Below the pieces are notes generated by a model, which saw only the letters and a list, made by a program, of their open reading frames with translations, did not search any database and had not been told where the DNA came from. Both the position numbers and the translations under genes were made by a program. Positions 1-50,015 of a stretch of DNA of 64,000 nucleotides are shown in pieces (within the stretch, counting starts at the first letter, position 1; the number at the start of each line of letters is the position of its first letter). This DNA is from a virus (taxonomy: Duplodnaviria > Caudoviricetes), in the IMG/VR virus record IMGVR_UViG_3300038345_000144. One strand, 5' to 3'.

Positions 1-31
1 AACGCTAACCGCATTGTATTACCCCCAAATC

Positions 32-421
32 TTAATAGTCTTCGTCTTCAGTGCCGTCAGCCATCTCATACATATACCACTCGTCGATGCTTAACAACCC
101 TTCAGCACGAACATACTCATCCATCAACTCTTTGATGAATTCTTTTTCTTCATCTGTAAGTTCCCAGTCGAAACTCTCGATATGACCTTTTCCGTCATCA
201 ACGGCGTAATTGGCTGAAATTTCACAGGTGTCTGGGTCAAATACTACCCAGAAACCCATCAGGAATGAGTCTTCGTTATTGGCGATGTCTGTGCCAAAAT
301 ACTTATCCTCATCAAAGAGGCACTCGGCGGTAAACTCAATCTCGGAGTCACTATGTATTAAGTGTCTGTCTCTCAACCTGATACTATCCTTGTTGATTTC
401 GATTTGTCTTTCTCTACCCAT
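32..421 (-). CDS. acidic hypothetical protein
   Basis: 129-aa ORF, AGGAG SD, D/E-rich. Confidence 0.8.
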   Translation of the reverse strand: MGRERQIEINKDSIRLRDRHLIHSDSEIEFTAECLFDEDKYFGTDIANNEDSFLMGFWVVFDPDTCEISANYAVDDGKGHIESFDWELTDEEKEFIKELMDEYVRAEGLLSIDEWYMYEMADGTEDEDY

Positions 422-2613: not shown

Positions 2614-3702
2614 TTAAAAGTATTGCATCGCTCCAGCAAACATCTGGGTCTCGATGATTTCATTACCAATTCCAACAAATCCTCTGCACTTAATTTCAGG
2701 TCTGCAAAGGTTGGAAATATCTTTCTCAAACATAAGAGTTGATGCACCGTCATCAAAACCACCCATCAAAATACCCATCTGGATGTTATTCTTCAAATCC
2801 GTACTGATTGTAGAACCAGAAGGTCTGATACATCCGAGTACCAAATGAATACCCGAAGCACGACCCAAACGAGCAAGTGAACCTAATGCAGTCTTAATGG
2901 TATCAACAGCCTTATAATCATCGTTATCCATAAGCAAAGACATCTCATCTACCATAAAGATAATTGTCTTCGGCTGGAAAATTCCATCAACTTTCTTAAT
3001 ATCCTTATCCTTAAAAGGAACACCATTAACCGTAACGCCCTTGAATTTTCCGTCTTTCAAACCGTTAGCCAATTCTTCAATAGTCATAATGGTTTCCCTC
3101 TTGCCGTCGGGATAAAGGGTAAGGTAGTAAGCGTACTTCCTGTCGTCAGTATCAATGTCATACTTAACAGGGAGCAAATTATCAAACTGCAATCTGCCAA
3201 CAGGTGTATCATAATAATCTACCAACACACCTCTATCGCAATTACTGTTACTGACCTTATAGATATTATTAACCCTATTTGCTTCCATCATCCTAAAACG
3301 GGTCATCATAAGTCTCTGGAGAACCTCCAAAGTAGAAGCAACAGCAACAACATCAGTCAATACATCAACAAACCTATGACGGACATCGCCAAAACTTATT
3401 CTGCTCAAGTCAGCACCGACCAACTGGAACTTATTACTAAACTTCGAGATATGGTTAACGATACATCTCTCAACAACATCTCTACCTGAACCTGTGCCTC
3501 CAGCAATTAAAAGTGAAGTGCTGGGGAAAGTGCCATAGTAACCCTTTTCCATCAAATTCTGGTCATTAAGATACCAGCCTACGATTTCTTCTTTACCTTT
3601 AGCATTTAATGTTACTCCCAACGGAACATAAGACCAAGCCTGGTCCTGATTGGGAAACAATAATGCTTCTTTAGTTAAGGTCTTCTTCTTATCTTTGCTC
3701 AT
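2614..3702 (-). CDS. FtsK/SpoIIIE-like P-loop ATPase with degenerate Walker A
   Basis: VPLG..., LLIAGGTGSGR (Walker A with K>R), IIFMVDE (Walker B), LARLGRASGIHLVLG..RP. Confidence 0.8.
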   Translation of the reverse strand: MSKDKKKTLTKEALLFPNQDQAWSYVPLGVTLNAKGKEEIVGWYLNDQNLMEKGYYGTFPSTSLLIAGGTGSGRDVVERCIVNHISKFSNKFQLVGADLSRISFGDVRHRFVDVLTDVVAVASTLEVLQRLMMTRFRMMEANRVNNIYKVSNSNCDRGVLVDYYDTPVGRLQFDNLLPVKYDIDTDDRKYAYYLTLYPDGKRETIMTIEELANGLKDGKFKGVTVNGVPFKDKDIKKVDGIFQPKTIIFMVDEMSLLMDNDDYKAVDTIKTALGSLARLGRASGIHLVLGCIRPSGSTISTDLKNNIQMGILMGGFDDGASTLMFEKDISNLCRPEIKCRGFVGIGNEIIETQMFAGAMQYF

Positions 3703-3734: not shown

Positions 3735-4181
3735 TTACTTTGACTTAAAAATACGCCAAGATTTAATCGTGTCCCAGATTGACCCTTTAACTTCAACCAT
3801 TGTGTCAATACTTAACGGGTTATTTTGGATAACACCAGGCAAAATCGTAGCATCGTTTCTCTGGGTACACAAGATACAGTGAATACCCGCAGAACGACCT
3901 AACTGGGTTATGGACTGAATATTACTTAAAATTTCATCTTTAAGAGCGTCTTCTGCCTTACCCTCTGTGGTCTTAATACCTGATTTACCTGTCAACTCCG
4001 CAATCTCATCTACAACGATGAGTAATCTCGGCATATCGTCTGTGCAGATTTTATCCACACAATTCTTATTAACTGGGACCCAGTGTTCATCATCCAAACA
4101 GATGTCCAACTCTGGAGCCACTACGGAAACCTTCTTTGCTTTTGCAGAAGTTCCGCTATCTTGATGGTCTAACCAACCCAT
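3735..4181 (-). CDS. FtsK-like ATPase middle fragment (Walker B) with C-terminal intein-N-like tail
   Basis: LLIVVDE...LGRSAGIHCILCTQR...IQNN then PLSIDTMVEVKGSIWDT; no Walker A. Confidence 0.75.
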   Translation of the reverse strand: MGWLDHQDSGTSAKAKKVSVVAPELDICLDDEHWVPVNKNCVDKICTDDMPRLLIVVDEIAELTGKSGIKTTEGKAEDALKDEILSNIQSITQLGRSAGIHCILCTQRNDATILPGVIQNNPLSIDTMVEVKGSIWDTIKSWRIFKSK

Positions 4182-4201
4182 AAATTCCCTCCTAAAAATT
4201 A

Positions 4202-4456
4202 TTAAGTAACAAGTTGTACTTTTGTCGTCTTGATTTCAAGTACCCTGTTGATTATCAGATTACCGCCATTTTCCTTGATATAGTTCTTGGCACTCAAATA
4301 AGCATCGCACCAAGCAGTCTCTTCAAGTTCAATTACTTCTTCCCAGCGTGGAATTGTTTTTTGTTCTTCGGCGTAGGACTCAACAACATAACCCGACTCA
4401 TCAACGATGTCATAGCGTTCATTAACTACAAAGATTTCACTTTCGGTCTTAATCAT
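4202..4456 (-). CDS. hypothetical protein
   Basis: 84-aa ORF with SD. Confidence 0.7.
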   Translation of the reverse strand: MIKTESEIFVVNERYDIVDESGYVVESYAEEQKTIPRWEEVIELEETAWCDAYLSAKNYIKENGGNLIINRVLEIKTTKVQLVT

Positions 4457-4468
4457 ACTGCTTCTCCA

Positions 4469-4912
4469 TTAAGGTAATTTAAGAACATCATATCCTGAAA
4501 GAAAACTGATTATCCTCTCACTCAAATTACACGCTTCTTCTAATAAAGCGATGTACTTTTTGGTGGTAGGAATGTCATAATAAACCGAAGGACTCATACG
4601 AATACCGTGAGTAATCTCAACGCCCTCGTATCTCTGATAATAATGATTATTATTATCAAGTTCATAAACATCAGGGTCAGTGGTTAATTTGATGCTAATG
4701 GCGTGTAAATCAGCCTCACCTTTAGAAACGACTTCGAACTTAATTTCAGTAATCGTTTCTTCCTTATCGTCCTCTTCTTCATAGTCTTCTTTTTCGACTG
4801 TAAGCACTCTGGTTATCTTCCTGAACTCAAAGTTGCCGTTCTCCGAGGCATAAATCACCTCAATATTGCAGTCTTTCTCATCTAAAATTCCAAAGCGTCG
4901 GTATTTTCTCAT
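4469..4912 (-). CDS. hypothetical protein
   Basis: 147-aa ORF, GGAGG SD. Confidence 0.75.
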   Translation of the reverse strand: MRKYRRFGILDEKDCNIEVIYASENGNFEFRKITRVLTVEKEDYEEEDDKEETITEIKFEVVSKGEADLHAISIKLTTDPDVYELDNNNHYYQRYEGVEITHGIRMSPSVYYDIPTTKKYIALLEEACNLSERIISFLSGYDVLKLP

Positions 4913-4951
4913 CTCTCAAACCTCCGAATTTCTTTACTTTCAATGCTCATT

Positions 4952-4969
4952 TATTATAATTAAATAGTC
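4952..4969 (-). promoter_or_regulatory. conserved promoter-like element GACTATTTAATTATAATA (copy 1)
   Basis: identical 18-mer at 21213 and 39048; contains TATAAT; follows a terminator. Confidence 0.65.
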
Positions 4970-4980
4970 TTTCACGAAGT

Positions 4981-5011
4981 AAAAACAGGAAAACCTTTCG
5001 GTTCTCCTGTT
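4981..5011 (-). terminator. intrinsic terminator
   Basis: AACAGGAGAACC-GAAA-GGTTTTCCTGTT-TTT. Confidence 0.8.
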
Positions 5012-5017
5012 ACTTGC

Positions 5018-5644
5018 TTAATTAACTGCTGTATAAGGCGGGTGGCAGACATAATTCTTACCATTCCAAGTTATGTGTCCACACAACCATTTCTTACCTT
5101 TGTCTGTACGCAACTCATTAGGGAATGAACACCAATGAAGTCCGTTTTCACCGTCATCATATTGAGCACGGAGTTTATGCTTCGAGTAGTCCTCTACGAT
5201 AGTTACTACATATTTTTGCTGAATAGGTCTATTTAAGGCTGGAGCCTGATATACCGCTTTGGTCTTATCCCAGTCAGTGATAGGGGCAAATTCAAGTGGG
5301 TTCTTATCAGCATCACTTATAGCATAAAGATGAAACTGGGTATAGTCCTTATACTTGGTAGAGTTGGTTACGGGTTTCAGGGTCATAGCCGACTCGTCAT
5401 ATACAGCATATACATCTACGGCTTTGTTGAAGCCAAAAGTATAGCCGAAATAGTCCAAATAATTGAGACCTAACTCCTTAAATACCTTTTCAACATCATA
5501 CTCCAGAAAAACTCCAGGTGGAATGGTAATCCAGTCCTTGAAATTAGAACTCTCTGTACGAACAACAAAGGTCGAACTAAAAGCCACTAATCCTTTTCTG
5601 GTTAAGACAAACTCGCTATCTGTCATCCTGATTATCTGTGACAT
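5018..5644 (-). CDS. hypothetical protein; C-terminal domain shared with 34309
   Basis: HKLRA...DG..G...C.FP.ELR......GH...PP motif present in both. Confidence 0.75.
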   Translation of the reverse strand: MSQIIRMTDSEFVLTRKGLVAFSSTFVVRTESSNFKDWITIPPGVFLEYDVEKVFKELGLNYLDYFGYTFGFNKAVDVYAVYDESAMTLKPVTNSTKYKDYTQFHLYAISDADKNPLEFAPITDWDKTKAVYQAPALNRPIQQKYVVTIVEDYSKHKLRAQYDDGENGLHWCSFPNELRTDKGKKWLCGHITWNGKNYVCHPPYTAVN

Positions 5645-5817
5645 ATACTTGTCTCCTTCTTACTTAAAAAATCGCTTTGATTTTTTCTCTCATTTCTCTC
5701 TATATTCTCTCTTTATCTGGATATTATCTGGTAGAAATTTCTGGTTAACTATATACACCTATTAACCATTCTTACCTATATCTATACCCATAAATTATGT
5801 AACTTTTTTTGCACATT

Positions 5818-5853
5818 GTTACAATTAGATTACAATGTTACAATTAGATTACA
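5818..5853 (-). repeat. TGTAA(T/C)-N5-TGTAA(T/C) box, duplicated in tandem (19-bp unit)
   Basis: plus strand gttacaattagattaca twice; overlaps the stop of 5849..6523. Confidence 0.8.
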
Positions 5854-6523
5854 TTGGTCCCAATTTCAGTTCGGTCATAATTTTATTTAATTCATACTCC
5901 CAAACTGCTTTGAAAGTACCGAGGGTATCTTTTTCAACGATTTTCTTGCTGGCTTCAAGGAACTCGGTAGGTGTTTCGCAGTTGCTATAACACTCATCTA
6001 ACTCCTTAATAATGTCTTGACTAATCTTAAGTTCTTCTTTGGAATAGTCAGAATAACCATTAGGGTAGATTTGCATTGACTTTTCTATATCAATGTCATT
6101 TCTCTTGAATTTCCAAATAAGACTATAAAGTTTGGACTCTAACAAATAATCCGCATCAGACTGCACTTCATCGTTAGGACCGTCATCAGAAACATCGTTA
6201 ACAATGCCCTGTTCCTCGGCAATCTTCAAAATCCTTCTAACTGCGTAGTCATAAGGCTTACGAGCCGTTTTACAGAAGTTAAATCCTGTTTCAAAATGCT
6301 CACAATCAGTGTTTGGAATAAAGAAGGTTTCGTGTCCGAGGTCGTTTGTTTCAGGACCATTCAACCAAATCCTGTCCATATTAGCAACGGGGCTTCCCTC
6401 ACCAAAACCATCAGCAAGTGATATGCCCTTTGAAGTACAATCGGCTATAATAGCGATTACCTGATTAACAAAATCCTCATCATAAGGCTTATCAGTTCTG
6501 TTCCAGTATCTTGTGTAACCCAT
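5849..6523 (-). CDS. phage-type conserved hypothetical protein
   Basis: MGYTRYW...HETF...FNFCKTARKPYD motif recalled from phage hypotheticals. Confidence 0.75.
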   Translation of the reverse strand: MGYTRYWNRTDKPYDEDFVNQVIAIIADCTSKGISLADGFGEGSPVANMDRIWLNGPETNDLGHETFFIPNTDCEHFETGFNFCKTARKPYDYAVRRILKIAEEQGIVNDVSDDGPNDEVQSDADYLLESKLYSLIWKFKRNDIDIEKSMQIYPNGYSDYSKEELKISQDIIKELDECYSNCETPTEFLEASKKIVEKDTLGTFKAVWEYELNKIMTELKLGPM

Positions 6524-6534
6524 AAAAAATCTCC

Positions 6535-6705
6535 TTATCTCTCTGTGACATCTCCATCGTCATAAATGCGATAGGTTAAAACATCTCCTCCTGCTCGGCA
6601 GGTAAACTCCCAGAACGACCTGTCCTCATAAGAGTCAACAACCCTATCGGCAGGTGTCTTTTCAAACAAAATCTTCTTTGCTTCTTCTTCATCTAATCTG
6701 CTCAT
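6535..6705 (-). CDS. small hypothetical protein (56 aa, not in ORF track)
   Basis: MSRLDEEEAKKILFEK...DGDVTER*, TAATG coupling to upstream gene, fills the gap. Confidence 0.7.
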   Translation of the reverse strand: MSRLDEEEAKKILFEKTPADRVVDSYEDRSFWEFTCRAGGDVLTYRIYDDGDVTER

Positions 6706-6944
6706 TAGAAATATACCTCGTCGATTGCTACATCATAAACAACGGCTCCTTCTTCCTGCAAACGAGCCTTCAAACCTTTTTCAGAGTCGTCAACAGCATC
6801 AAACCATATACCTCGTTCGTCAGCCTCAACCCACACAGCAGTAACATCATCACAAATTTCCTGAATTTCGTCTACTGTTAAGTTGTCAACTACGCAAAGT
6901 AATTCTTTGGTGTCTTTATCATATACAGGTACTAATCCTCTCAT
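6705..6944 (-). CDS. hypothetical protein
   Basis: 79-aa ORF with SD; resembles 12178. Confidence 0.7.
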   Translation of the reverse strand: MRGLVPVYDKDTKELLCVVDNLTVDEIQEICDDVTAVWVEADERGIWFDAVDDSEKGLKARLQEEGAVVYDVAIDEVYF

Positions 6945-6983
6945 AAAATGTCTCCTTTATTGTTATTTAATAAAAATATATTG

Positions 6984-7148
6984 TTAATCAATATAAATCT
7001 CCGCAGGAATGTCTCCTACCTCGTCGTGAAATTCTCCTGCTTCATCGTAATATTTGATGTCGCACCAGTTGTTTTCTTTTATCTCGATACTAACAACTTT
7101 AGGAAATTCCCACTGCCTACCATCTTTGTCAATAAGTCTAACTTTCAT
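6984..7148 (-). CDS. small hypothetical protein (54 aa, not in ORF track)
   Basis: MKVRLIDKDGRQWEFPK...EIYID*, GGGGG SD. Confidence 0.65.
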   Translation of the reverse strand: MKVRLIDKDGRQWEFPKVVSIEIKENNWCDIKYYDEAGEFHDEVGDIPAEIYID

Positions 7149-7160
7149 TGGTCATCCCCC

Positions 7161-7583
7161 TTAAATTTCCTCGAACTTCTGGTCTTTACGCTTATCAATC
7201 TCGGCGTGTTCGCCATCGAAATCAATAACGGTCTTATCATTGAAGTTACCAAGTTCTTCCTCGCCTCCGAGTTCTTCCTCTGCGAGTTCCTGCTTGTTTC
7301 TGTAACCCAATTCGTCCAGACCTCTCTGCTTGAAATAGGTGTCAGTTATCCACTTCTGCTGTTCAAAGTAATACTGAACACGGGAAATCTGACCCTGCAT
7401 CTTGGTAATACCAGCACCCTTATGCGTACCATCAATAGTAGTAGCAAGAGTGGAGTTCAAAGCCATCATAGAGGCAGTTGTTTCCAGACGACCTGCAACG
7501 ATTTTCGCCGCACAATTATGTGTAAATATAGCATCTTCAGGTATCTGGACCTGCTTGCATTTATTTTTGTTAATCTTAATCAT
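7161..7583 (-). CDS. FtsK-like ATPase C-terminal fragment with N-terminal intein-C-like peptide
   Basis: AAAGGA SD before MIKINKNKCKQVQIPEDAIFTHN|CAAKIVAGRL..AS...L...KGAG; aligns with the C-terminus of 2614..3702. Confidence 0.7.
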   Translation of the reverse strand: MIKINKNKCKQVQIPEDAIFTHNCAAKIVAGRLETTASMMALNSTLATTIDGTHKGAGITKMQGQISRVQYYFEQQKWITDTYFKQRGLDELGYRNKQELAEEELGGEEELGNFNDKTVIDFDGEHAEIDKRKDQKFEEI

Positions 7584-7672
7584 AAGCAAAATTCCTTTCA
7601 ACTTATTTTACTAATATTTCATACCGTAGTTTGTTGAAAAAGTTAGTCACTATTTTCAACTACCACCATAGG

Positions 7673-9581: not shown

Positions 9582-10055
9582 TTATTCTCCTCTGGATAAA
9601 TATTCTTCAACTGACGCTTCTGTTTCATCATCATTGAGTTCGGCATCAAAAGTAACATATTCTAAATCTAATGTCTTTTGTCCTATGGCAATAGCCACGA
9701 AGAATTTATTATTCTTAAAAACCACATCGGCTATTGGAACCTTAACATCTTTAATAGAACACTCTCTAATATCGGTAAGAATGGGTCCGTTACCAAGTGC
9801 CTTTACTGCCTCTAACAAGGTTGATTTATCAATTGTTTCAGGAATAACAGCGACAGTCATTCTAACAGGGGATGTCCACGCCTGACTGAACTTCAGGGTA
9901 TTTCCCTTATATGTATATGTCTTGTTTTCCAAGTCCATATTGATAATTTCATCGCAAGTATCAGCAAAATCATTTATGCTGTCGGCATCTACAAACTGAT
10001 TGAAAAATTCAGGATTAACGGAATATTCAATCTCGAAAAAATTATTCAAATCCAT
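9582..10055 (-). CDS. hypothetical protein
   Basis: 157-aa ORF with SD. Confidence 0.75.
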   Translation of the reverse strand: MDLNNFFEIEYSVNPEFFNQFVDADSINDFADTCDEIINMDLENKTYTYKGNTLKFSQAWTSPVRMTVAVIPETIDKSTLLEAVKALGNGPILTDIRECSIKDVKVPIADVVFKNNKFFVAIAIGQKTLDLEYVTFDAELNDDETEASVEEYLSRGE

Positions 10056-10058
10056 AAT

Positions 10059-10376
10059 TTATCTCCTTCTATACAGTATCTCCTGCGGAAATTGTCCTTC
10101 AACTAATTCAAATACCAACTGACTTCCAGCCTCAATATCTTTCTGGGTTACTTTGAGATTATTTTCTTTTACCCATTTCTGGACCAGGTTGATAATATCC
10201 TGTTTAGTAAAGGCATTTTCTCGCTTTACAGCCCCATCTTCGTATGCAGTTTCAGGAATATAAATGATGATGTCATCTGGAGAATTCTCCCAGTCCAGCA
10301 GTTTATATCCCAAACTATCATTAGATTTGGGCATATTTTTGAGCCTGTTATGCTCATTAAATTCTTCTATTGTCAT
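10059..10376 (-). CDS. hypothetical protein, paralogue of 21687
   Basis: MPK...DW...IIYIPE..YE...VKRENAF.KQD shared. Confidence 0.8.
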   Translation of the reverse strand: MTIEEFNEHNRLKNMPKSNDSLGYKLLDWENSPDDIIIYIPETAYEDGAVKRENAFTKQDIINLVQKWVKENNLKVTQKDIEAGSQLVFELVEGQFPQEILYRRR

Positions 10377-39169: not shown

Positions 39170-42100
39170 TTAAGCAGTTTCTTCAGCACCGTCTTCTCTC
39201 TTCTTTTTGAAGATAAAGACCTTCATCATACCAGCCATCATTATGCAGATAATAATGACAAATGTTGTGGTTGAAGTGTCCTTGAAGCCCGTAGGACTTG
39301 GGACAACTGAACCTGTGATATGGTATGTTTCATTACTGTTATAGTAATACTCTTCAGGGAGGTCAATACCGTTGAAGGAGATAACCTGACCCTTATTTAC
39401 GATAAGAGTATTAGGGATAGCAGTATTAACTGTGCAAGGAATACCGATTGTGTAGGAAGACCTACCAGAAGTAGAACTACCCAACATACCGAACTTGACT
39501 GTTAATTTATTGCCATCGACAGTAACCGTAATGTTGTCATAACTGCTCAAAGGCTTATCGTTAATCAAGATGTTTGCCTCATCTATTGTTACAGAAGCAG
39601 GGAGATTATCAGTAACGATTACATCAGTTAAGTCTGTATTCTCTCTGTTCTCAACCTTCAATGAGTACAAGAGCATATCGTCCTTGAATACTTCGTGCGG
39701 TGCTGTTTCTGTACCACTTTCAGGGTTAGAAGTGAGCGTTACAAGAAGTTCAGGTAAATGAATTGTAGCATATGTTGTATTTACGGAAGGAGACTGCTCA
39801 ACGAATGTTCCGTTCTTCTTCTCATCACGATAGAGAGTAGCGGTATTGTTGACCTGTGTTTCCTCGAAAATAGCATCTGCCTTCTCATAGATTACGATGT
39901 TAAATGCTCTTGCGGAGGAGCCATTACCTAAAATGAACTGCTCGCCGTTGACATCCTTACTGTAATCTACAACGATACCATAGACCTTCAATCCCGTAGG
40001 AATAGTCTTTGTCCAACCGTGCTCTGTGTCAATGTTATCAAAATCAGGTTCAGGGTCTAATGAGTACCAAACTTCACCCTTTGATGTTGTTGCAGTACCA
40101 TCAGGCTTGTAACCACCGATTGTAGGAACATAAACGCTCTGGAGTGTACCAGCACCGTCTAACTTATCCTTGATAACCATATTTGTAGAGATGGTATCTT
40201 GGCTCTGACCATAGAAAATCTTGTAAGAATAGTTCTCACCTGGAACGATATTTACAGTAGAAGAATACTGGTTATTACCACGGGCAACTGAACCAAACAA
40301 ACCATAAGCCTCTGCCTGTGGAGCGTAGTAATACAATGTTGTTGCCGCAGTTGATACATAGTAATCGTCTCTGTACTGCTCGTACAAGTCAGCATAATAC
40401 TGTCTGTCCATTCTCATATTTCCATAGTAAGTATAGATGTTGTCATATACCTCGTCCATATTAGAAGTATTGACGAAGAACATAGAGATATTACCCTCTG
40501 TTCCCAATATGAGAGCGTCTTGGTATGTACGCTGTGTTAAGAACTCTACATATACCTGTGAGTATTTAATATCGTGCATTGTGACGATAAGCATTGTTCT
40601 ACCACTATTCTGCCAGTTGTTGACAAACTCGTAGTCATAGAACTCGGTAGAAATTCCATAACCGTCCTTACTTGAGTCGTTATTGTTATTACCAATCAAG
40701 TAAACGGCTGAAGGGTTAGGTGATGCCTCTGGTAAGAGTACATAGAAAATACCTGAACCAATCGGAGTTGTTGGAGTATTTCTGTCAGCGTGGTAGTTTC
40801 TTACGCCTGCAAATGCCCAAATACTTGAAACTCTGTTTGTAGGGTCTTCAGTTCTTTCATTGTTCTTGATACTGGAGTCAATAGACAATGCTGAAGATGG
40901 CAACTTGACAAGTTCATACAAGTCCTCAAATGCGTTAGGGTCAGTGTGTGTATGGTTCAAAACATAGTGCTGTGACTCCATACTTGCCTCGTCAAAGTTG
41001 AGGTCCAAATGACAACCAAGTTTAATTACTGTGGAAGCGTTAATATCAAAGTCAGACTGTACCTGTGTCTTTACTCTTGCAGAAGACTTTAAGGTAACGA
41101 ACGGGTCGAGCAATACTCTGATATAGAAGTGTTCAGAAGAGTCTGTAACGAACTTCCAAGCAATAGTACCTTCAGGGAGATTAACTGTTTGTGCTCTATT
41201 ACCCCAGTATTCATTCTCGGTAAATAAAATCCAATCAGTATCGCCTGCCCTCTTAACATAGATAGAGTAAGGAATATCGCTTACATAAGTATCTTTTTGC
41301 TTTAATGTCCAAGCGACATCTTCATTTGTACTTACATCAGCATCATAAATCTCGATTGTGAATGTGAGTTTTGAGAACTCATAGTCATTCTCGCCCAAAA
41401 TTATGTTACCGCAAGCAGGGTTCCACATATTGTAGTCATCGCCTGCACCAGAACTCAAGTAAACATCACCAATATCCATCCAGAGATTTACATTCTGGTT
41501 AACCCAACGGAATGTAGTATTTCCATCTGTATCAGTAAATGATGTCCACGGTGAAGTGTTCTGATACTTAACTGCCCACTCAAGTCCAGAAACGCCAGAA
41601 CCATTAAGGATTGCGTTCTGTGAGTGCTTTGTAGGCTCGTAACCAACTCTACCGATTGTGAAGTTAGCCTCATCTCTCTGATAGAGTGCAAAACGATAAT
41701 CTACTGCCTCTGCCTCGATGATATGTTCCTCACCATCAAAGATGACTTTAGCGGTATTGTGTACGATAGTTCTACCACTATCACCCAACAATGATGTAGG
41801 ATAACGGCAGAGAACATACATAGCACCGTAACCACTCTTACTATTTACACTATCACAATTCTTGTAAGTGCCTTGCTGACCATATCCAACAACTTCACCC
41901 TCGCAGTCGTCAACGACATAGAGAGCCATTGAAGAGTAGTCAGATGAAGGGCAATAGAAAGATGTAGAATAAGTCCATAATACATAGAAGTAGTCATCAG
42001 AGTCTTCAGGTCTTGAACCCCAACTATTCTGCCATACAGTATAAGAAGTACCTGTACCTCTTGTAGATGAATAGGAGTTACCGCTTCTTGGAGCAACTCT

Positions 42101-45100
42101 TACATTCATTTCATAAGACTTCTGTGTATCAAACTCACCATCGTTATCAGTATCAATCATAAAGATAACAGGGAAAGTGACATTTGTACCATAAGAAGTG
42201 TACTGTGATGAATAGTTAATTGTAATGTTAAGACCTGCTGAACTGTTAGACAAGTTCGCATTATTTACAATAGCCCAGTTGTTAGAGTCATAATCCTTAT
42301 AAGAGAAGAACATTTCACTTGATGTGTTAGGATATTGAGGTAACTCTGAAGCCAAGTCTGTGTTATTAGCATAGAAGATGGTCTTCGGAATGATAATCTG
42401 AATGTTTCCTTCAGGAATATCGTTACTGTTTTCCATTACATTGAACGCAACGTGCAAAGACGCTGTGTGTGAGTAACTACCATTTGCAAAATACAAGTGA
42501 CTTGCATCAATCTTATCAGAATTGTTTGCCCAATATGCAGAACACTCAAAAGAGATACCATTCTCATTGATTGTAGCAGTCATAGGCTCAAATACTGGAT
42601 GATACTTTGTACCGAGTGCGGGTTTTGTTGCAGTTGTGAGTTGGTTGCCCTCGTCATCAAACCAGCCTACAAGTCTCTGGTCTGCAACGGAAATACCAGG
42701 CAACGGTCCAAAAGTAACGCCTGCAACAACCTGTGTAGGTCTATAAGTTACACCGTCAATAGTAACGGCTGACTGATATACTCTACCATTTGTTGTGAAG
42801 TTGTTAGTGTAGCCTGAAACATCAAAGTAGACATAGCCACGCTCACCCCATTTAGCAACAAGCGTTGTGTCTTTCTTAAAGTATGATGCTGAAGCAGTTG
42901 AGTATGTTATTGTTGTACCATCTTCCTTTACCTCATACCAATACAAGAATGAATAATCATCTTTTGTAGGGATATAAGAACCAAGACCAACAGCACTATT
43001 ATAAGGAACTGTTATTGCCTCGATTTCGGAACCGCCCTGTGTATCAAATGTGATTGTAACAGGTTCGTGGTTATCTTCTTCAGGGTTGTATGGGTTATAC
43101 GGATTATCCTCTGGGTCAAGAGAGTCACCGTTTCGCTCCCAAACAGCGTGAAGAACATTGTTTGTAGTGAGGTCAAGAACAGTCTCGTTGACAATTACCT
43201 GATTACCGTCCTTATCTACCCACTTAACAAGGTCATAACCCTGTCTTGTAATTGAAGGCAAGTAAGTTACCAGATAATTTTTAACATCAGGGCTGTAACC
43301 TGAACCAGGATATACACAAGAATATGTTGAAGTCTGACCGTTGATTTCACAATCATACTCAAAAACAACTTTAGGTTCGAGCATAAGGTAAATATCAGCA
43401 GTATCACCATAAGTTACACGGTAATCATAAGCATAAACATAGTCATAATGATACTTTCCGTTACCATCATCAACATAAACGCTGTTATAACTATATCTAC
43501 CAATCTGCTTTGACCAGTCAATACTGTTTGTGTTAGGGTCAATAGGGTCATCAACGGCAAACAATGTAGAATATACATATCCGAACTTGTCTTCAGGCTT
43601 GAATTCGTTATTGCTTGTAAGACCGTCAACATAGTTATTTGACCACTTGAAAGTAGAACCGCTTAAATAAATGCTGAAATATGTTGAGAAGTTGTTGTGT
43701 GTCCAGTTATCATTACTATTTCCTCTGTTATAAGGAACTGCAAGAACTAACTCTCCGTCCTTGTACCACTGTCCATAGAACTTAACTTCAATATCTTCAG
43801 GGTTCTCATATTGAGAAGTTACATAATCAGCATAATGCACTCTCAAATAGACAGGAGGCATTATATAAGCATAAATGTCGCAACTTTCGTTGAATTTAGT
43901 GTTGTACTGATGTACTAATCCCCACGGATTGTCGTCCTCACCATTATAGGAATAACTAATTCCACTATCTTCATTGTAGAAGGTATAACCATTTTGAGAG
44001 AAGATTTCCTTACCGCTTTCAAAGTCACAATCACTACGCTTACTCCAGAACATAACGGTATCATCACCGAGTCTCTGGTTATAAGCAATACCAAAATCAA
44101 TAAACTTTGCACCTGTTGTAGTTTCAATAATTACAGGGTCATACATCTGTGTACCGTCATAGGCATTGACATAATGAAGCGTAACTGTGATATTTTCAAT
44201 TTTTCTCCACTGTGCGTAAAGAGTGATTGTTTCACCAGTCTGTGCTAATCCCTGAACACCGTCAGAAACCGCATAAGAAGTACCAGTGCCGTCAGCAGAG
44301 GTATTGTAACCTGTGAGTATGTATTCAGCATCAGAACTGAAAGCATTTGACAAAAAATATAACTCGTCAATAGCCAATGTCTTTGTAATAGGCTCAAGTC
44401 CTTCTCTATTACCATCAATAATCAATGTGTAAGTGTCGGAAACATCCCAGTGAGCATACAAAGAAGTAGCAGTCATTTCAGGGTCATATTCCTCATATTT
44501 GTTGTCGCTTGAGTCATACCAACCTGTGAATGTATAGCCGTTTCTTGTAGCCGTAGGGAATGAGAAATCAGTTGTTTCAGTAGTAATATTGAGGGCATTG
44601 AAGGAAATTTCGCCACCATTACCATAGAAGTTAATTGTCTTCTGAACCTTTACCCAAGTACCAGCATATTTAGGTAAGAAACCGTTACCTAAAAGTGTGT
44701 TAAGAGGCATTGTTGTATTGTCAGAAAGTCTTACCCAGTCCATAGTATAAGATGAACCATCAGTTGTAGTCCAAGCCTTATATCCCATACTGGTTGATAA
44801 ACGGTTAGACCAACCTCTACCAACGATAACCTTATTAAGACTATTACAGCCACCCAAGAAGTAGCCCCAATATGCACCTGTATAAACCGTCCAACCAGAA
44901 AGGTCAACTGTTGTAAGGTTAGTACAGCCATTAAATACATTAGCACCGCCCCAAGAAGTATCTGTAAGACCTGTCAAATCCCAATTAAATTTAGGGAAAG
45001 TAGTCAAACTGGTACAATTTTGGAACATACCATATATAGTAGTTACCTTGTGCATATCCATCGGTAAGTCTACTGTGGTTAATGCTCCGTCATTTAAGAA

Positions 45101-46189
45101 CATTTCCTTTGCTGTGGTAAGATTACCAGTATTAGAAGGCATCTTAACTGACTCAAGACCAGGCATATAACCAAACATACCCTCCATAGTAGTAGCACTA
45201 CTAAAGTCACAGTCACTAAAATCAACCGACTTTAATTTAGGGCAGTTATTACCATATTTATTACCAAATAACCAAGAAAAATCGGAAACTTGGCTGACAT
45301 CAAACTTGTAGAAATCTACAATATTTTCCAAGTTCTTAAAGTCAGAGAAAATACCGTTATAACCCCAGAAACTATCGCCGTGACGGAGTGTAGTTGCACC
45401 AGTAATATAATCTTTGAAGATAATAGTTTTAACTAAATCAGTGTTCTGATAGTATGTATCGCCAACTAAACGACCATTATCTCTCAAAAGTTTAATGCTG
45501 TTGTTTCCGTTAGATAATGCACCATAAGTCTCTGTGTCAGGAGTATTACCCTTCTGAATTACAAGAGTACCGTCGGCATACAAAACAGAATATGCGTCTG
45601 TACCCAAAATTGCGGGTTCAGTACCTCTTGTAGCACCTCTTGAAGGCTCTTCTTCAGGTTCTTCTCCATCAGGATTTTCTCCATCGGGATTTTCAGCGTC
45701 AGGTGTTTGTTCATCAGGGGAACCAGCATCGGCAGGAGTTTCGCCGTCTGTTCCATCTGAATTACCACTTGTATCACCGTCAGTAGTACCATCGGTTGTT
45801 CCGTCGGTATTACCGTCCTGTCCTGCGGGAGCACCTAAAGGTCCTTGCTGACCTTCCTCACCATTATTATCAGGTGCGGGAGTGCTGTCTCCATCATCAG
45901 CAGGGTTTTCGGGTGTTTCCCCGTCTACGCTGTTTGCTCCGTTTGTGGTAGGGTTCTCTGTACCATCGTCCTGAATTGTCGCAGGGTCAGGTTTATCACC
46001 ATCCGTATCGGAGTTCTCACTACCGTTGTCAGAAGAAGGAGCCTTGTCGGGAGTCTCTGTATCAACTACTGTTGTTGCAGTTGTAGGGTCTCCTGACTCT
46101 AACTCATCTGCCATTACTGTAATACTTCCGCTAAAAATATTGATAACGAAAATAGGAAGTAAAGCAAGAGTTAATAATCTTTTCTTCAT
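39170..46189 (-). CDS. large sortase-anchored surface adhesin (2339 aa)
   Basis: signal peptide; D/G/E/P-rich linker; BspA/DUF285-like LRRs (M..MF..C..L..VD); InlB-B/Listeria-Bacteroides repeats (F..NGG...TR.GYTF.GWY...LYA.W); DUF11-like domain (V.VTDNLP); VPSPTG + TM + KKKR. Confidence 0.85.
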   Translation of the reverse strand: MKKRLLTLALLPIFVINIFSGSITVMADELESGDPTTATTVVDTETPDKAPSSDNGSENSDTDGDKPDPATIQDDGTENPTTNGANSVDGETPENPADDGDSTPAPDNNGEEGQQGPLGAPAGQDGNTDGTTDGTTDGDTSGNSDGTDGETPADAGSPDEQTPDAENPDGENPDGEEPEEEPSRGATRGTEPAILGTDAYSVLYADGTLVIQKGNTPDTETYGALSNGNNSIKLLRDNGRLVGDTYYQNTDLVKTIIFKDYITGATTLRHGDSFWGYNGIFSDFKNLENIVDFYKFDVSQVSDFSWLFGNKYGNNCPKLKSVDFSDCDFSSATTMEGMFGYMPGLESVKMPSNTGNLTTAKEMFLNDGALTTVDLPMDMHKVTTIYGMFQNCTSLTTFPKFNWDLTGLTDTSWGGANVFNGCTNLTTVDLSGWTVYTGAYWGYFLGGCNSLNKVIVGRGWSNRLSTSMGYKAWTTTDGSSYTMDWVRLSDNTTMPLNTLLGNGFLPKYAGTWVKVQKTINFYGNGGEISFNALNITTETTDFSFPTATRNGYTFTGWYDSSDNKYEEYDPEMTATSLYAHWDVSDTYTLIIDGNREGLEPITKTLAIDELYFLSNAFSSDAEYILTGYNTSADGTGTSYAVSDGVQGLAQTGETITLYAQWRKIENITVTLHYVNAYDGTQMYDPVIIETTTGAKFIDFGIAYNQRLGDDTVMFWSKRSDCDFESGKEIFSQNGYTFYNEDSGISYSYNGEDDNPWGLVHQYNTKFNESCDIYAYIMPPVYLRVHYADYVTSQYENPEDIEVKFYGQWYKDGELVLAVPYNRGNSNDNWTHNNFSTYFSIYLSGSTFKWSNNYVDGLTSNNEFKPEDKFGYVYSTLFAVDDPIDPNTNSIDWSKQIGRYSYNSVYVDDGNGKYHYDYVYAYDYRVTYGDTADIYLMLEPKVVFEYDCEINGQTSTYSCVYPGSGYSPDVKNYLVTYLPSITRQGYDLVKWVDKDGNQVIVNETVLDLTTNNVLHAVWERNGDSLDPEDNPYNPYNPEEDNHEPVTITFDTQGGSEIEAITVPYNSAVGLGSYIPTKDDYSFLYWYEVKEDGTTITYSTASASYFKKDTTLVAKWGERGYVYFDVSGYTNNFTTNGRVYQSAVTIDGVTYRPTQVVAGVTFGPLPGISVADQRLVGWFDDEGNQLTTATKPALGTKYHPVFEPMTATINENGISFECSAYWANNSDKIDASHLYFANGSYSHTASLHVAFNVMENSNDIPEGNIQIIIPKTIFYANNTDLASELPQYPNTSSEMFFSYKDYDSNNWAIVNNANLSNSSAGLNITINYSSQYTSYGTNVTFPVIFMIDTDNDGEFDTQKSYEMNVRVAPRSGNSYSSTRGTGTSYTVWQNSWGSRPEDSDDYFYVLWTYSTSFYCPSSDYSSMALYVVDDCEGEVVGYGQQGTYKNCDSVNSKSGYGAMYVLCRYPTSLLGDSGRTIVHNTAKVIFDGEEHIIEAEAVDYRFALYQRDEANFTIGRVGYEPTKHSQNAILNGSGVSGLEWAVKYQNTSPWTSFTDTDGNTTFRWVNQNVNLWMDIGDVYLSSGAGDDYNMWNPACGNIILGENDYEFSKLTFTIEIYDADVSTNEDVAWTLKQKDTYVSDIPYSIYVKRAGDTDWILFTENEYWGNRAQTVNLPEGTIAWKFVTDSSEHFYIRVLLDPFVTLKSSARVKTQVQSDFDINASTVIKLGCHLDLNFDEASMESQHYVLNHTHTDPNAFEDLYELVKLPSSALSIDSSIKNNERTEDPTNRVSSIWAFAGVRNYHADRNTPTTPIGSGIFYVLLPEASPNPSAVYLIGNNNNDSSKDGYGISTEFYDYEFVNNWQNSGRTMLIVTMHDIKYSQVYVEFLTQRTYQDALILGTEGNISMFFVNTSNMDEVYDNIYTYYGNMRMDRQYYADLYEQYRDDYYVSTAATTLYYYAPQAEAYGLFGSVARGNNQYSSTVNIVPGENYSYKIFYGQSQDTISTNMVIKDKLDGAGTLQSVYVPTIGGYKPDGTATTSKGEVWYSLDPEPDFDNIDTEHGWTKTIPTGLKVYGIVVDYSKDVNGEQFILGNGSSARAFNIVIYEKADAIFEETQVNNTATLYRDEKKNGTFVEQSPSVNTTYATIHLPELLVTLTSNPESGTETAPHEVFKDDMLLYSLKVENRENTDLTDVIVTDNLPASVTIDEANILINDKPLSSYDNITVTVDGNKLTVKFGMLGSSTSGRSSYTIGIPCTVNTAIPNTLIVNKGQVISFNGIDLPEEYYYNSNETYHITGSVVPSPTGFKDTSTTTFVIIICIMMAGMMKVFIFKKKREDGAEETA

Positions 46190-46190
46190 T

Positions 46191-46844
46191 CTAAATTTCC
46201 TCCAATTTTGTTATAAGTATAAGCCTATCTGTTCCTTCGCCTATGCAAGTGGATAATATCAAGTATCTTCCATCTGCAAGGTCATATTTCGCTTTTAAGA
46301 ATTCTAAATTATGTTTTACATAAAGGTTATCGTAAGCACTGATTTTATCAGTAAATAGTGGTGTGATACTGTAAGTTTTGTTTTCTGTTATAAAAGTTCC
46401 TGTCTGATGAGTTGATAGATAATTTTCATCCATAAAGTCATCAAGATTTCCAAACATTAGCCCGCCTGTCATATGGTGTCCGTAGATAACGATATAATCA
46501 TCATCTAAAGTGGCATCAGCGTCTATATAGAGCGAGCCTGTTAAACTACTGTTTCCATATAAATCTCTATTCAAGTAATTATATGTATCAGTGGCTTGTA
46601 GTACAGGGTAATCAATATTGGTGTTATCTATTGTTAGCCACCCTACTACATCAGGGTTGATTTGTTTTAGTTTTTCCAGAGAGAACTCTTCCTCGGCTAC
46701 TGGCTTGACCTCTGAATAAGTCTCGGCTTTTGCTCGCTTTTGGATTGTTGCACTGTCATACAAGAAAAACAGCATTATGGTTACAACAACCGCACAAAAG
46801 AGTTCAATGAGTGTAGTTACTACGAAATTTAACTTCTTCATCAT
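46191..46844 (-). CDS. srtB: class B sortase
   Basis: N-terminal TM; NPDVVGWL.I..T.IDYPVLQ; IYGHHM..G.MFG.L; LSTC...R. Confidence 0.9.
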   Translation of the reverse strand: MMKKLNFVVTTLIELFCAVVVTIMLFFLYDSATIQKRAKAETYSEVKPVAEEEFSLEKLKQINPDVVGWLTIDNTNIDYPVLQATDTYNYLNRDLYGNSSLTGSLYIDADATLDDDYIVIYGHHMTGGLMFGNLDDFMDENYLSTHQTGTFITENKTYSITPLFTDKISAYDNLYVKHNLEFLKAKYDLADGRYLILSTCIGEGTDRLILITKLEEI

Positions 46845-47347
46845 AGTCCAAAGCGTCTCACATCAAGTATTACTACACCAACTATCTGACTTTTATCAAT
46901 AACTCCGAAATCTCGGCTGTCCGTATGAAACTCTCGGTTATCACACAAAACATAGTATTGATTTTCTCCTAAAGTAACCTTGTAGTCGCTATTGGAGTTG
47001 TCAGAAGTATAAATATTATCTTCATACACCAAATAGTTATTCTGGAAAACACTACCACTCTGACTTACATAAATCTCGTTATTTGGGGTTCCTACGAGTC
47101 GTCCGATGTATAATTCACCGTTGTATTTATAAACAACCACATCTCGTAAGGTAAAATCCGAGTTAATTCTCGAATAAACTACGGTGTCGTGAAACTTAAT
47201 GTTTGGCGACATACTATCGGAGTCCTGCGTAGTTACACCAATAACGAAAGTAAAGGTTATAATCAGCATTAGTAGAAAAACACCAAGTTTTGCTACTATC
47301 TCAACACCAGTTGAGTGCTTTTTTGTAAATTCCTTTATCTTATTCAC
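46841..47347 (-). CDS. signal peptidase I-like pilus chaperone (SipA/LepA type)
   Basis: SMSP, DVVVY, YIGRLVG (catalytic K replaced by G), DNR...DSR.FG. Confidence 0.8.
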   Translation of the reverse strand: MNKIKEFTKKHSTGVEIVAKLGVFLLMLIITFTFVIGVTTQDSDSMSPNIKFHDTVVYSRINSDFTLRDVVVYKYNGELYIGRLVGTPNNEIYVSQSGSVFQNNYLVYEDNIYTSDNSNSDYKVTLGENQYYVLCDNREFHTDSRDFGVIDKSQIVGVVILDVRRFGL

Positions 47348-47376
47348 TTAACTTCCCTACCCATCTTAATTAGTTA

Positions 47377-48681
47377 TTATTGTTCGTCTTTCTTAACCTT
47401 AATCTTTCTAATAACGACTAAAGCACCGCCCATAAGACCAGCCAAAGCGATGAAAGGTAATACTCTCATCAAGAAACCTGTTGTAGATGGAGCGTTTGCC
47501 GTATTATAGAACTCTAATAAGAAACCCCTATTAGTAACTTCTTTAGACACATCCGTTAGAGAGTTCCTTGAAAGATAGTCTGAAACTGGCTTTCTTGTTA
47601 CACCAAGTTGACCATTAGGCTGTAATACCTCATCTGTGAAAGAGTCATCAGATGTTGTTAATGTGTAAGTCAACTTTGTATTATTTGTCTCGATTACAGA
47701 TAAAGATACATAAGGAGCAATACCGTAAATATAGCAACTTTTATCATCTGCCAAGCCAACAGCATAAGATTTGCTTGCTTCTGCTAACTGTCCCTCAACA
47801 GTACCAGCGAAAACGATGCCCTCGTAAGGAACCTCCTCTGCACCAGGAGCCGTATTTACACGCTCATCTCTTAAAGTGATGGTGAACGGGAATGGGTGAG
47901 TAGTATCTGCCATATTACCGTCAATCTGCTTTGTAATAATAACATTATAAGTTTCATAACGGTCAACAGAATTATCATCACCTACGCTGTATGTATAAAC
48001 ATCGTCAGCAGTTCCATCTTCGCCATCTTGACCAGCAGTATGAGTCTCGATAACATCTCCACCAATGACATAGCCTGGTGTTTTCTTGGTATCTGCAACT
48101 ACGACAGGCGGGATTTCATCAAGGAGTACATAACCACTGATTTCTAACTTACCACTTGTGCTATTTCTTACTACATAAACATCAAGTTCTCTTGTAGTGT
48201 CAAAATCAGCACTTCTCATAATACCTGCTCTATACAAGTTTTCTGTTGGGGTTACATCGGTAATTGTGTAACGATAGATACCAGGATTTTCAAACTTATC
48301 CAAATCTACCGTAAGTTCGATATTTTTAACCAACTGCTTGTTCAAAGCCGTACCCTCTGACTCTACTAATTCAGGAGTAAAAACAAGTTCAACTCCCTCG
48401 GTAAGACCACCTTCAGGACCAGCCAAAACTGGAGCCGAGATATTAGCGGAGTCTGTTACTGCACCAAGATTTGTTGATGGTGCGATGCTGAATATATAAG
48501 TAATTTCGGGTGAATAAGACTTATCATATCCAGTATTTTGAATAATTATTCCTTTCGGAATACTGATTGTGGTGTCGGAGGTATTCGATATACCATCTTC
48601 ACCGATTGTTGCCGCAAATGTAGGTACTGCCATTATCCCTACGGTGAGCAACGCAACTAAAACCTTTGCGATTTTCTTCAT
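47377..48681 (-). CDS. pilin-like sortase substrate (probable backbone pilin)
   Basis: signal peptide; F..PGIYRY.IT; ITKQI.GNMAD....F.FTI; NAPSTTG + TM + basic tail. Confidence 0.75.
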   Translation of the reverse strand: MKKIAKVLVALLTVGIMAVPTFAATIGEDGISNTSDTTISIPKGIIIQNTGYDKSYSPEITYIFSIAPSTNLGAVTDSANISAPVLAGPEGGLTEGVELVFTPELVESEGTALNKQLVKNIELTVDLDKFENPGIYRYTITDVTPTENLYRAGIMRSADFDTTRELDVYVVRNSTSGKLEISGYVLLDEIPPVVVADTKKTPGYVIGGDVIETHTAGQDGEDGTADDVYTYSVGDDNSVDRYETYNVIITKQIDGNMADTTHPFPFTITLRDERVNTAPGAEEVPYEGIVFAGTVEGQLAEASKSYAVGLADDKSCYIYGIAPYVSLSVIETNNTKLTYTLTTSDDSFTDEVLQPNGQLGVTRKPVSDYLSRNSLTDVSKEVTNRGFLLEFYNTANAPSTTGFLMRVLPFIALAGLMGGALVVIRKIKVKKDEQ

Positions 48682-50015
48682 TTGTTCGTGTTTCCTTTCT
48701 TCTTTTTAACAACTATTATTGTTGCAGTTAAGCCAGTGATACCAACCAGTGCTATTCCTGCAAGAATAAACAAGTTAATATTGTCACCTGTTTTAGGTGA
48801 AGGCGGGAAGATAATCAAAGGGTTGTCTTTAACTGTGATAGGCACTAAAATACTACTGCCCTCATAGGAAACGCCCTCTGCATCTGGAGTTATATAGAAT
48901 TTATCGGGATTGATTTCATATCCAGCAGGAGCCTTTGTTTCTTGAATATAATACTCTCTGCCGTCAATAGGAACTGTAAACTCTAAATTACCGTTGGCAT
49001 CGGTAAGTCCAACACAAGGATTGCCGTTAATATCGTCTACAATGTTACCATCAGTATCATAAAGGGTAAATTCTGCACCCTTGAGGTAATACTTAATGTT
49101 ACCAGAAGAAACTTTGGCAATCTTAACATTAAAAGAAGTATAAGCAACAGGACTGCTCATCATAGTTACTGTATAAATATTATCACCGTCTTGTTTTGCC
49201 CAAGAGCCAGTATTTCCGTGTTCAGCAACTTCGTCCTTTACTACTGAATAGCCCTTATCTAAAAGTCCTTGTAAAGTAACCTCATACATACCATAAGCGT
49301 CAGAACCACTTGTAGCGTTAACAGGGTCCATAAGGAGCATAGGCTCATTGAAACGAGCAACGCCCTTAACTACTGTTGTATTAGTCTTTTCAACTACTAC
49401 GGGTTCATCAAAGGTATAAGCCAGAGGCTCAAGAACAACAGGGTCATTATCTACTACTGTTTGTCCGAAAGGTTCGTGGCTTTCTGTAAACACAATGTCA
49501 TCAGCAATTTGTGTTCCATCGTTGTCTACAAACCTAAAAATAATATTACTATTAACAATCGCTGGTACATAAACAAATCCAGTATCTTTTACACCACTGG
49601 CGGTATAGAAGTGATAACTGGAAAGAACTAATTGACCATTATCATATAACACAGTAACATCGAGAAGTCTGTATTCGTTCTGTGATGTATTGGTCAAGCG
49701 GTATCTGTAAGTACCTGCGTGGTCAAAAGGTGTAACATCAAAGGACATTGTGATGGGCTTTGTCTGCTTTTTACCGTCTGACAAAGAAAAGTCGAGAGTT
49801 TCAGTCTGTAATACGACACCACCCTCAACACCTTTTTCAATTCCATCAATTCCTTCGGGTTCTTCTGCTTCGAGAGTATAAGAGAAACTGCGTGAAGTTA
49901 TGGAAGTTCCCTCGAAACTATTAGTTTGACTAATAGTTATACTGTCGTCTGCATATACTACACCTCCGAAAAGCATTACACATACACATAATAAGGCTAT
50001 CACGGCTTTTCGCAT
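48678..50015 (-). CDS. ancillary pilin with SpaA/Cna-B-like domain
   Basis: signal peptide; F.HAGTYRY; LKGAEFTLY...TDANG...YYIQETKAPAGY; SPKTGD + TM + KKKK. Confidence 0.8.
   Translation of the reverse strand: MRKAVIALLCVCVMLFGGVVYADDSITISQTNSFEGTSITSRSFSYTLEAEEPEGIDGIEKGVEGGVVLQTETLDFSLSDGKKQTKPITMSFDVTPFDHAGTYRYRLTNTSQNEYRLLDVTVLYDNGQLVLSSYHFYTASGVKDTGFVYVPAIVNSNIIFRFVDNDGTQIADDIVFTESHEPFGQTVVDNDPVVLEPLAYTFDEPVVVEKTNTTVVKGVARFNEPMLLMDPVNATSGSDAYGMYEVTLQGLLDKGYSVVKDEVAEHGNTGSWAKQDGDNIYTVTMMSSPVAYTSFNVKIAKVSSGNIKYYLKGAEFTLYDTDGNIVDDINGNPCVGLTDANGNLEFTVPIDGREYYIQETKAPAGYEINPDKFYITPDAEGVSYEGSSILVPITVKDNPLIIFPPSPKTGDNINLFILAGIALVGITGLTATIIVVKKKKGNTNK

Follow-up and report, generated by a model that had tools for sequence, protein, structure and literature searches.

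The locus described here raises the question of how two separately translated fragments of one FtsK-like ATPase domain could come to form a single polypeptide. It lies in a 64,000-nucleotide stretch of IMG/VR virus record IMGVR_UViG_3300038345_000144 (Duplodnaviria; Caudoviricetes), referred to below as the window. One open reading frame (ORF) of the window, the N-piece, encodes ATPase sequence followed by a short tail, and a second, the C-piece, encodes a short head followed by further ATPase sequence; tail and head resemble the N- and C-terminal fragments of an intein (IntN and IntC). We consider it probable that the ATPase parts of these two ORFs are exteins joined post-translationally by a class-3 intein that is encoded in three genes, the third of which specifies a free-standing core outside the window. 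A three-piece intein had been suggested as one reading in a preliminary description of this DNA, and it gained support here from a free core with its catalytic residues and fold, from the tiling of the three parts on a contiguous intein, and from the HN/C ends of homologues (the slash marks the splice junction).

Both ORFs were found at the positions and on the minus strand that had been reported for them (Table 1). The N-piece contains the Walker B and GRSAGIH..TQR motifs of FtsK proteins, as previously noted, and no Walker A motif. It matched the Pfam family FtsK_SpoIIIE (PF01580) with 19.1 bits (E 9e-4), under the 24-bit cut-off, and FtsK-like relatives at E 1e-27 or better; 613 relatives of the N-extein were retrieved at E<=1e-3, together with >140 homologues of the C-piece at 56-99% identity. 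In the uninterrupted 599-amino acid relative P0141, the N-extein corresponds to residues 371-477 and the C-extein to residues 477-599. The match of the former ends, and that of the latter starts, at residue 477, and the two pieces therefore abut exactly. In the intein-containing relative P0131 the corresponding residues are 383-498 and 618-746. Both relatives score 65-69 bits against Pfam FtsK_SpoIIIE, above the threshold, match FtsK and TcpA-type coupling-protein structures, and have their own N-terminal membrane domain and Walker A, neither of which is found in the window pieces. Judged from these comparisons, the window pieces are probably fragments of a member of the FtsK/SpoIIIE ATPase family. 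The earlier alignment of the joined pieces with an uninterrupted relative holds for P0141 and P0131, but the paralogue at 2614, which had served as the reference, is a weak one, being only 25% identical to the N-piece and lacking a significant match to the C-piece.

The N-extein is followed by Pro (3816-3818), so that position 1 of the intein is a non-nucleophile, as is also the case in the cis form P0131; the class-3 type of start that had been proposed agrees with both. Only the first 11-12 residues of the tail (PLSIDT.VEVK, 3783-3818) are conserved, and the rest varies among relatives. When N-piece representatives were clustered at 50% identity, 21 clusters stopped 11-31 amino acids after the motif N/(P/S/C)Lxx(D/N)T. 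On this likeness, the tail is a class-3 intein block A whose position 1 is occupied by Pro.

The head begins with a Lys-rich, variable portion, and its conservation is limited to the last 6-7 residues (7515-7535), with THN/C at 7512-7523. An in-frame head, 10-55 amino acids long, is present in 60 of the 120 clusters of C-piece homologues. The end (I/V/L)(F/Y)THN stands before Cys in 54 of these heads, with T in 55, H in 55 and N in 57, and Cys follows HN in all but three. Homologues of the C-piece both keep the HN/C that had been named as the C-terminal splice junction and align to the FtsK C-terminus. The first extein residue, Cys+1, occurs where intein ends exist, and its position is taken by L, T, I or F in twelve intein-less relatives. 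The conservation of the tail and head ends is far beyond chance, and ..AIFTHN is, by this pattern, the final beta-strand (block G) of the intein. Two other features ascribed to the head did not hold: KCKQV is rejected as block F because it is not conserved among heads, the real block F (..QCITT..) being located on the free core, and the likeness of MIKI to the start of DnaE IntC is coincidental, MIKI not being conserved either. A candidate for a permuted block B at the N-terminus of the N-piece (..EHW.PVNKN..) proved to be ordinary extein that is conserved in intein-less relatives, and a regular-expression search for further tails or heads in the window found none.

Tail and head (27 + 23 amino acids) lack blocks B and F and do not hold a complete HINT domain between them. 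The preliminary description had judged them too small for a HINT fold, which is in line with their coverage of only positions 1-12 and 141-145 of a 145-residue intein. Relatives show the site in four states, namely without an intein (P0141, P0130, P0133 and others), with a cis intein, with a two-piece split, and in the short-tail/short-head form seen in the window. The cis form is a contiguous 145-amino acid class-3 intein at exactly this site (P0131; genomes G005 and G006). In this form, which in the complete phage G005 is part of a single large ORF, Pro1, the block-B H-x-W, the block-F Cys and THN/C are all present, and the intein region of P0131 matches PDB intein chains by sequence. In the two-piece state (P0127, P0129, P0144) a long IntN follows the extein and breaks off immediately ahead of the last strand.

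A search of complete IMG/VR phage genomes with P0131 identified the short form in four of them: G001 (290 kb), G002 (394 kb), G003 (332 kb) and G004 (467 kb). Each of these genomes has separate ORFs for an N-piece with a 12-amino acid tail, a C-piece, and a core of 118-125 amino acids. The core ORF matches only P0131 residues 493-616, which are the interior of the intein, and in every case it has its own ribosome-binding site and ATG. The same search found no free core in G005 or G006, the carriers of the cis intein. As a family, the free core comprises 76 clusters, all of 75-137 amino acids (most of 117-137), on contigs of up to 467 kb.

These genomes bear on the explanation that a rearrangement broke an intein-bearing gene and left the pieces as pseudogenes. 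The permuted gene order, the lack of Walker A in the N-piece and the interruption of the C-piece genes in many relatives could all be signs of such decay. Both ORFs of the window are nevertheless intact and each is preceded by a ribosome-binding site, while extein identity is 65-85% across >100 clusters; the same layout is present in four complete genomes, with the same gene order in the three that were compared, and the first 12 residues of the tail and the last 6 of the head are conserved while their neighbours vary. A decaying relic is, in our judgment, highly improbable.

The residues expected of a class-3 intein are found on the free core. His52, Trp54, Cys103 and Thr106 are invariant in 25 cores with a mean column identity of 66%, and the block-B His and Trp (H-x-W) and the block-F Cys are also present in the 123-amino acid core P0343 and absent from the window itself. 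A single-chain AlphaFold model of the G001 core (predicted local distance difference test score, pLDDT, 88) was closest to 6bs8, 6riy and 6rix (E ~4e-6, template-modeling score, TM, ~0.7), the class-3 DnaB inteins of M. smegmatis and M. chimaera, followed by the Prp8 and gp41-1 inteins; the free core is accordingly modeled with a HINT fold. When aligned to the P0131 intein, the window tail, the P0343 core and the window head tile its 145 amino acids without overlap (Table 1).

This tiling argues against a two-piece system that needs no more than the short tail and head, possibly with a host factor, while the free HINT protein serves some other junction. The two fragments contribute about 18 conserved residues and nothing of blocks B or F. 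Additionally, the cis intein found at this same site is a homologue of the free core, which stops at the points where the fragments take over, and a second three-piece intein of these phages has its own, different core. We therefore see hardly any likelihood of a two-piece system.

The second three-piece intein interrupts the Walker A loop of the same protein (loci L009, L029 and L015 in G001; L010, L031 and L023 in G002; L011, L035 and L016 in G003). Its N-terminal piece ends in GGGK followed by a tail of 11-16 amino acids, the next piece starts with a head of ~11 amino acids ending in SHN/S, and its free core of ~195 amino acids ends just before the last strand. A cis class-3-like intein occurs five residues before it in the same Walker A loop.

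From the anatomy and conservation described above, a three-part assembly and a splicing chemistry can be proposed, following the class-3 scheme of PMC7891396; the definition of the block-B Trp (position N3:12, two residues past the block-B His) comes from the same source, and the block-F Cys and block-G Thr occupy C2:4 and C1:5. In this proposal, a huge phage has a membrane-anchored ATPase of the FtsK/TcpA-like kind, and the two exteins make up its C-terminal half. The N-piece would bring the first intein strand (~12 conserved residues), the C-piece would bring the last strand (..IFTHN) and Cys+1, and a free protein of ~120 amino acids, encoded outside the window, would supply the remaining HINT fold with the block-B His and Trp and the block-F Cys. 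Both short strands would dock into the core and complete the fold, after which the block-F Cys of the core would attack the Asn121-Pro bond, so that the N-extein is held as a thioester on the free core. The acyl group would then be transferred to Cys+1 of the C-piece, the terminal Asn of the head would cyclize and release the head, and an S-to-N shift would produce the peptide bond. The predicted product has 238 amino acids with the junction ..IQNN-CAAK..., and its tryptic junction peptide would be NDATILPGVIQNNCAAK.

Several observations weigh against this reading. Pro1 is not among the class-3 examples consulted in the literature. No core was found in the 64-kb window with an intein hidden Markov model (HMM), a core HMM, or tblastn with P0131 and P0141; the best E-value of the core HMM was 0.07, compared to 9e-67 for the G003 positive control. 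By an index match, all 35 index words of P0343 are common to a 372-nucleotide stretch of the window's genome, a candidate core gene located 17,767 nucleotides past the window end, and walks from the window end and from the P0343 contig gave only non-overlapping contigs of 7.8 and 9.7 kb. The earlier suggestion of a core supplied in trans by a gene elsewhere is thus borne out in G001-G004, where the free middle fragment was read directly, and for the window's genome it agrees with the index match, while none lies within the window. Half of the C-piece homologue clusters have gene calls that are interrupted shortly after the junction, and if this reflects decay and not recoding, the system is being lost in many lineages. 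Furthermore, in G001-G003 the membrane domain and Walker A half are encoded 30-140 kb away from the N-piece, and the break between them bears no intein, so that two or more chains are probably present in the final enzyme. An enzyme that stays multi-chain anyway has no obvious need of covalent joining.

The last point would suit an arrangement in which the HINT-like fold reassembles and only clamps the ATPase fragments together non-covalently, without splicing. Fragments of split inteins bind tightly, which also fits such docking. The residues that serve chemistry only (the block-F Cys, the block-B His, the Thr-His-Asn end and Cys+1) are nevertheless kept, over cores that are 56-100% identical and pieces that are 40-85% identical, and intein-less relatives are without Cys+1. 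Because these residues are conserved and Cys+1 is linked to the intein ends, docking without splicing is weakened as an explanation, and we regard it as unlikely. The core might also clip the tail, the head or both without ligation, the fragments then maturing separately. Engineered S1-type constructs often undergo C-cleavage without splicing (PMC3620165). Cleavage does not need a conserved Cys+1, however, and it would leave unexplained the precise abutment of the exteins on uninterrupted relatives and the natural occurrence of fused, intein-less forms of exactly this C-terminal half (e.g., P0133 and P0134). This explanation appears very unlikely to us.

Trans-splicing remains our preferred reading, and since the Cys that starts the reaction belongs to a free protein, the core may even act as an enzyme. 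It would form an acyl-enzyme thioester, transfer the acyl group to any partner bearing the head of 6-7 amino acids, shed the two short peptides and turn over. We put this forward tentatively, as a proposal that we think more doubtful than splicing itself.

The features of the window are listed in Table 1. All of its genes are on the minus strand and encode mostly small acidic products without family assignment. Along the direction of transcription, the C-piece precedes seven ORFs (the preliminary description had counted six), and the N-piece follows them. The order that had struck the earlier reader as unusual was confirmed and is shared by the three relatives in which the piece positions were compared (G001-G003); it has no bearing on trans-splicing. 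Among the seven intervening ORFs, Pfam gave nothing relevant, including no endonuclease domain, and the intein and core HMMs gave nothing; since none of them is intein-like, these ORFs are not considered part of the system. A predicted terminator between the pieces suggests that they may be in different transcripts. The paralogue that adjoins the N-piece has Arg-Asp in place of the Lys-Ser/Thr of Walker A and CIRP in place of TQR, and may therefore be catalytically inactive. Phage-database searches with the window DNA and with the paralogue protein returned no matches, and an exact 35-nucleotide pattern from the window did not occur in IMG/VR. Elsewhere in the window, a Gram-positive pilus cluster occupies 39170-50015 on the minus strand.

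Table 1. Features of the two split genes and their surroundings in the window, and placement of the three intein parts on the 145-amino acid cis intein of P0131.
Feature	Position	Strand	Remarks
Complete FtsK-like paralogue	2614..3702	-	362 aa; degenerate Walker A (GGTGSGRD); adjoins N-piece downstream; context, not a split-gene piece
N-piece ORF	3735-4181	-	148 aa; 121-aa extein + 27-aa tail
N-piece stop codon	3735..3737	-	TAA
IntN tail	3738..3818	-	27 aa; starts PLSIDT; follows Asn121
N-extein	3819..4181	-	121 aa; FtsK-like ATPase from before Walker B to ..IQNN; ends at Asn121 (3819)
N-piece ribosome-binding site	4187..4193	-	AGGAGGG; 5 nt before ATG at 4179-4181
Seven ORFs between the pieces	4202..7148	-	84, 147, 208, 224, 56, 79 and 54 aa
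Terminator-like hairpin	4984..5011	-	12-bp stem, then T-run; consensus scan only
C-piece ORF	7161-7583	-	140 aa; 23-aa head, then Cys + 116 aa
Rest of C-extein	7164..7511	-	116 aa; end of ATPase domain + acidic tail ..DQKFEEI
Cys+1	7512..7514	-	first C-extein residue; expected final acyl acceptor
IntC head	7515..7583	-	23 aa; ends ..AIFTHN; last 6-7 residues 7515-7535
C-piece ribosome-binding site	7592..7599	-	GAAAGGAA; 8 nt before ATG at 7581-7583
Surface protein	39170-46189	-	2339 aa; Listeria-Bacteroides repeats + DUF285
Sortase	46191-46844	-	
Two pilin-type proteins	47377-50015	-	SpaA, FctA and DUF7601 domains
Window tail	cis-intein positions 1-12		alignment to P0131 intein
P0343 core	cis-intein positions 14-139		alignment to P0131 intein
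Window head	cis-intein positions 141-145		alignment to P0131 intein

Relatives of the split gene show coding gaps of 3-21 nucleotides just after the splice junction. These were seen at L005 and L006 (near 10040-10060), L002 (9940-9960), L015, L016 and L023 (p2 genes), L077 (1460-1500), and L082, L083 and L084 (near 370-400). Each gap opens with a stop codon (TAG, once TGA) immediately after a sense codon, and when it is skipped the expected protein results; the take-off codon on one side is often synonymous with the landing codon on the other (Ile..Ile, Val..Val), and two gaps lie within a hairpin. An in-frame head is lacking in 60 of the 120 C-piece clusters, and the window C-piece itself has no such gap. 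The gaps resemble the translational bypass of T4 gene 60, the alternative being widespread decay. The TAG of some homologues corresponds to Gln (CAG) in others, but recoding of TAG to Gln was found insufficient, as some gaps are 4, 5 or 13 nucleotides long, one opens with TGA, and G003 has no CUA suppressor tRNA. A cluster of 40 tRNA genes and a transfer-messenger RNA (tmRNA) gene at 144222-171079 of that genome includes two tRNA-like genes for which ARAGORN gives a two-base anticodon (150356-150618).

ORF-less insertions were observed at three loci of relatives: L023 (G002 p2, 421 nucleotides), L086 (G002 p3, ~600 nucleotides) and L066 2635-2895 (G005). The G002 p2 insertion has G as its last nucleotide, and the 5' exon that precedes it terminates in T; the motif GTTCAACGACTA occurs in the G002 p2 and G005 insertions, and CAGCCAAGTC also in G002 p2. 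By these features the insertions are probably group I introns; no Rfam family was matched in them. In G002 (L086/L089) the N-piece is directly followed by an endonuclease-like ORF of 355 amino acids, the N-terminus of which is zinc-finger-like; its end nearly duplicates the final 16 codons of the N-piece (..QNNPLS.DT..). This repetition of the N-piece end suggests that insertion of a homing endonuclease created the break after the first intein strand.

Short N-terminal fragments are known from atypical split inteins such as AceL-TerL, the IntN of which has ~25 amino acids with only block A, while the C-fragment holds the whole remaining fold and is fused to the C-extein. The phage system shares the short IntN and differs in that the remainder of the fold is a free protein. 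The first reported naturally split class-3 intein is AceL NrdHF (PMC7891396), which likewise is natural, acts in trans, and has a non-nucleophile at position 1 and a block-F Cys as the branch point; splicing of the phage system is predicted. AceL NrdHF has two pieces, divided at a canonical split site, that together make up a complete HINT domain, whereas the 27 and 23 amino acids of the phage tail and head cannot. The best structural matches of the free core, the cis class-3 DnaB inteins of M. smegmatis (6bs8) and M. chimaera (6rix/6riy), have in common with the phage system the WCT signature (Trp in block B, Cys in block F, Thr in block G); they are single-chain inteins of helicases, with 20-25% sequence identity to the phage core. 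Fractured genes (Dassa et al. 2009, PMC2677866) are similarly phage or metagenomic genes broken at an intein, with halves that are translated separately. They have two intein halves in N-to-C order on one strand with an endonuclease gene between them, as opposed to three intein parts, C before N, and no endonuclease found between the window pieces.

Only engineered three-piece inteins were found in the literature, and a 2023 preprint describes the natural inteins known so far as one-gene or two-gene, with three-piece versions as engineering feats. Three parts are likewise needed per HINT fold in the engineered versions (Ssp DnaB, Rma DnaB, Npu DnaE and gp41-1; bioRxiv 10.1101/2023.01.30.526203). 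The cut points of the phage system are those of the engineered S1 site, which leaves an N-intein of 11-12 amino acids, and of the S11 site between the last two strands, which leaves a C-intein of 6-7 amino acids; both work in vitro (PMC3620165). The engineered versions were made in the laboratory from class-1 inteins, in contrast to the phage system, which is natural and of class 3, with genes tens of kb apart that are conserved in many huge phages. In a class-3 intein the initiating nucleophile is on what is here the free middle piece, and the N-extein would therefore pass through a thioester on a separate protein.

If true, engineers would gain a naturally optimized system with tags of ~12 and ~7 residues and a separate 14-kDa catalyst, suited to peptide-to-protein ligation and three-input logic. 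Should the core be a true enzyme, it would be a natural trans-acting protein ligase. For the phages, a natural and conserved three-piece class-3 intein would mean that evolution reached such a state and kept it, and separate expression of the core could provide a third input by which the phage sets when, in the course of infection, the ATPase is assembled. It also raises the question of why a single motor protein of huge phages is broken up into so many parts with genes of their own.

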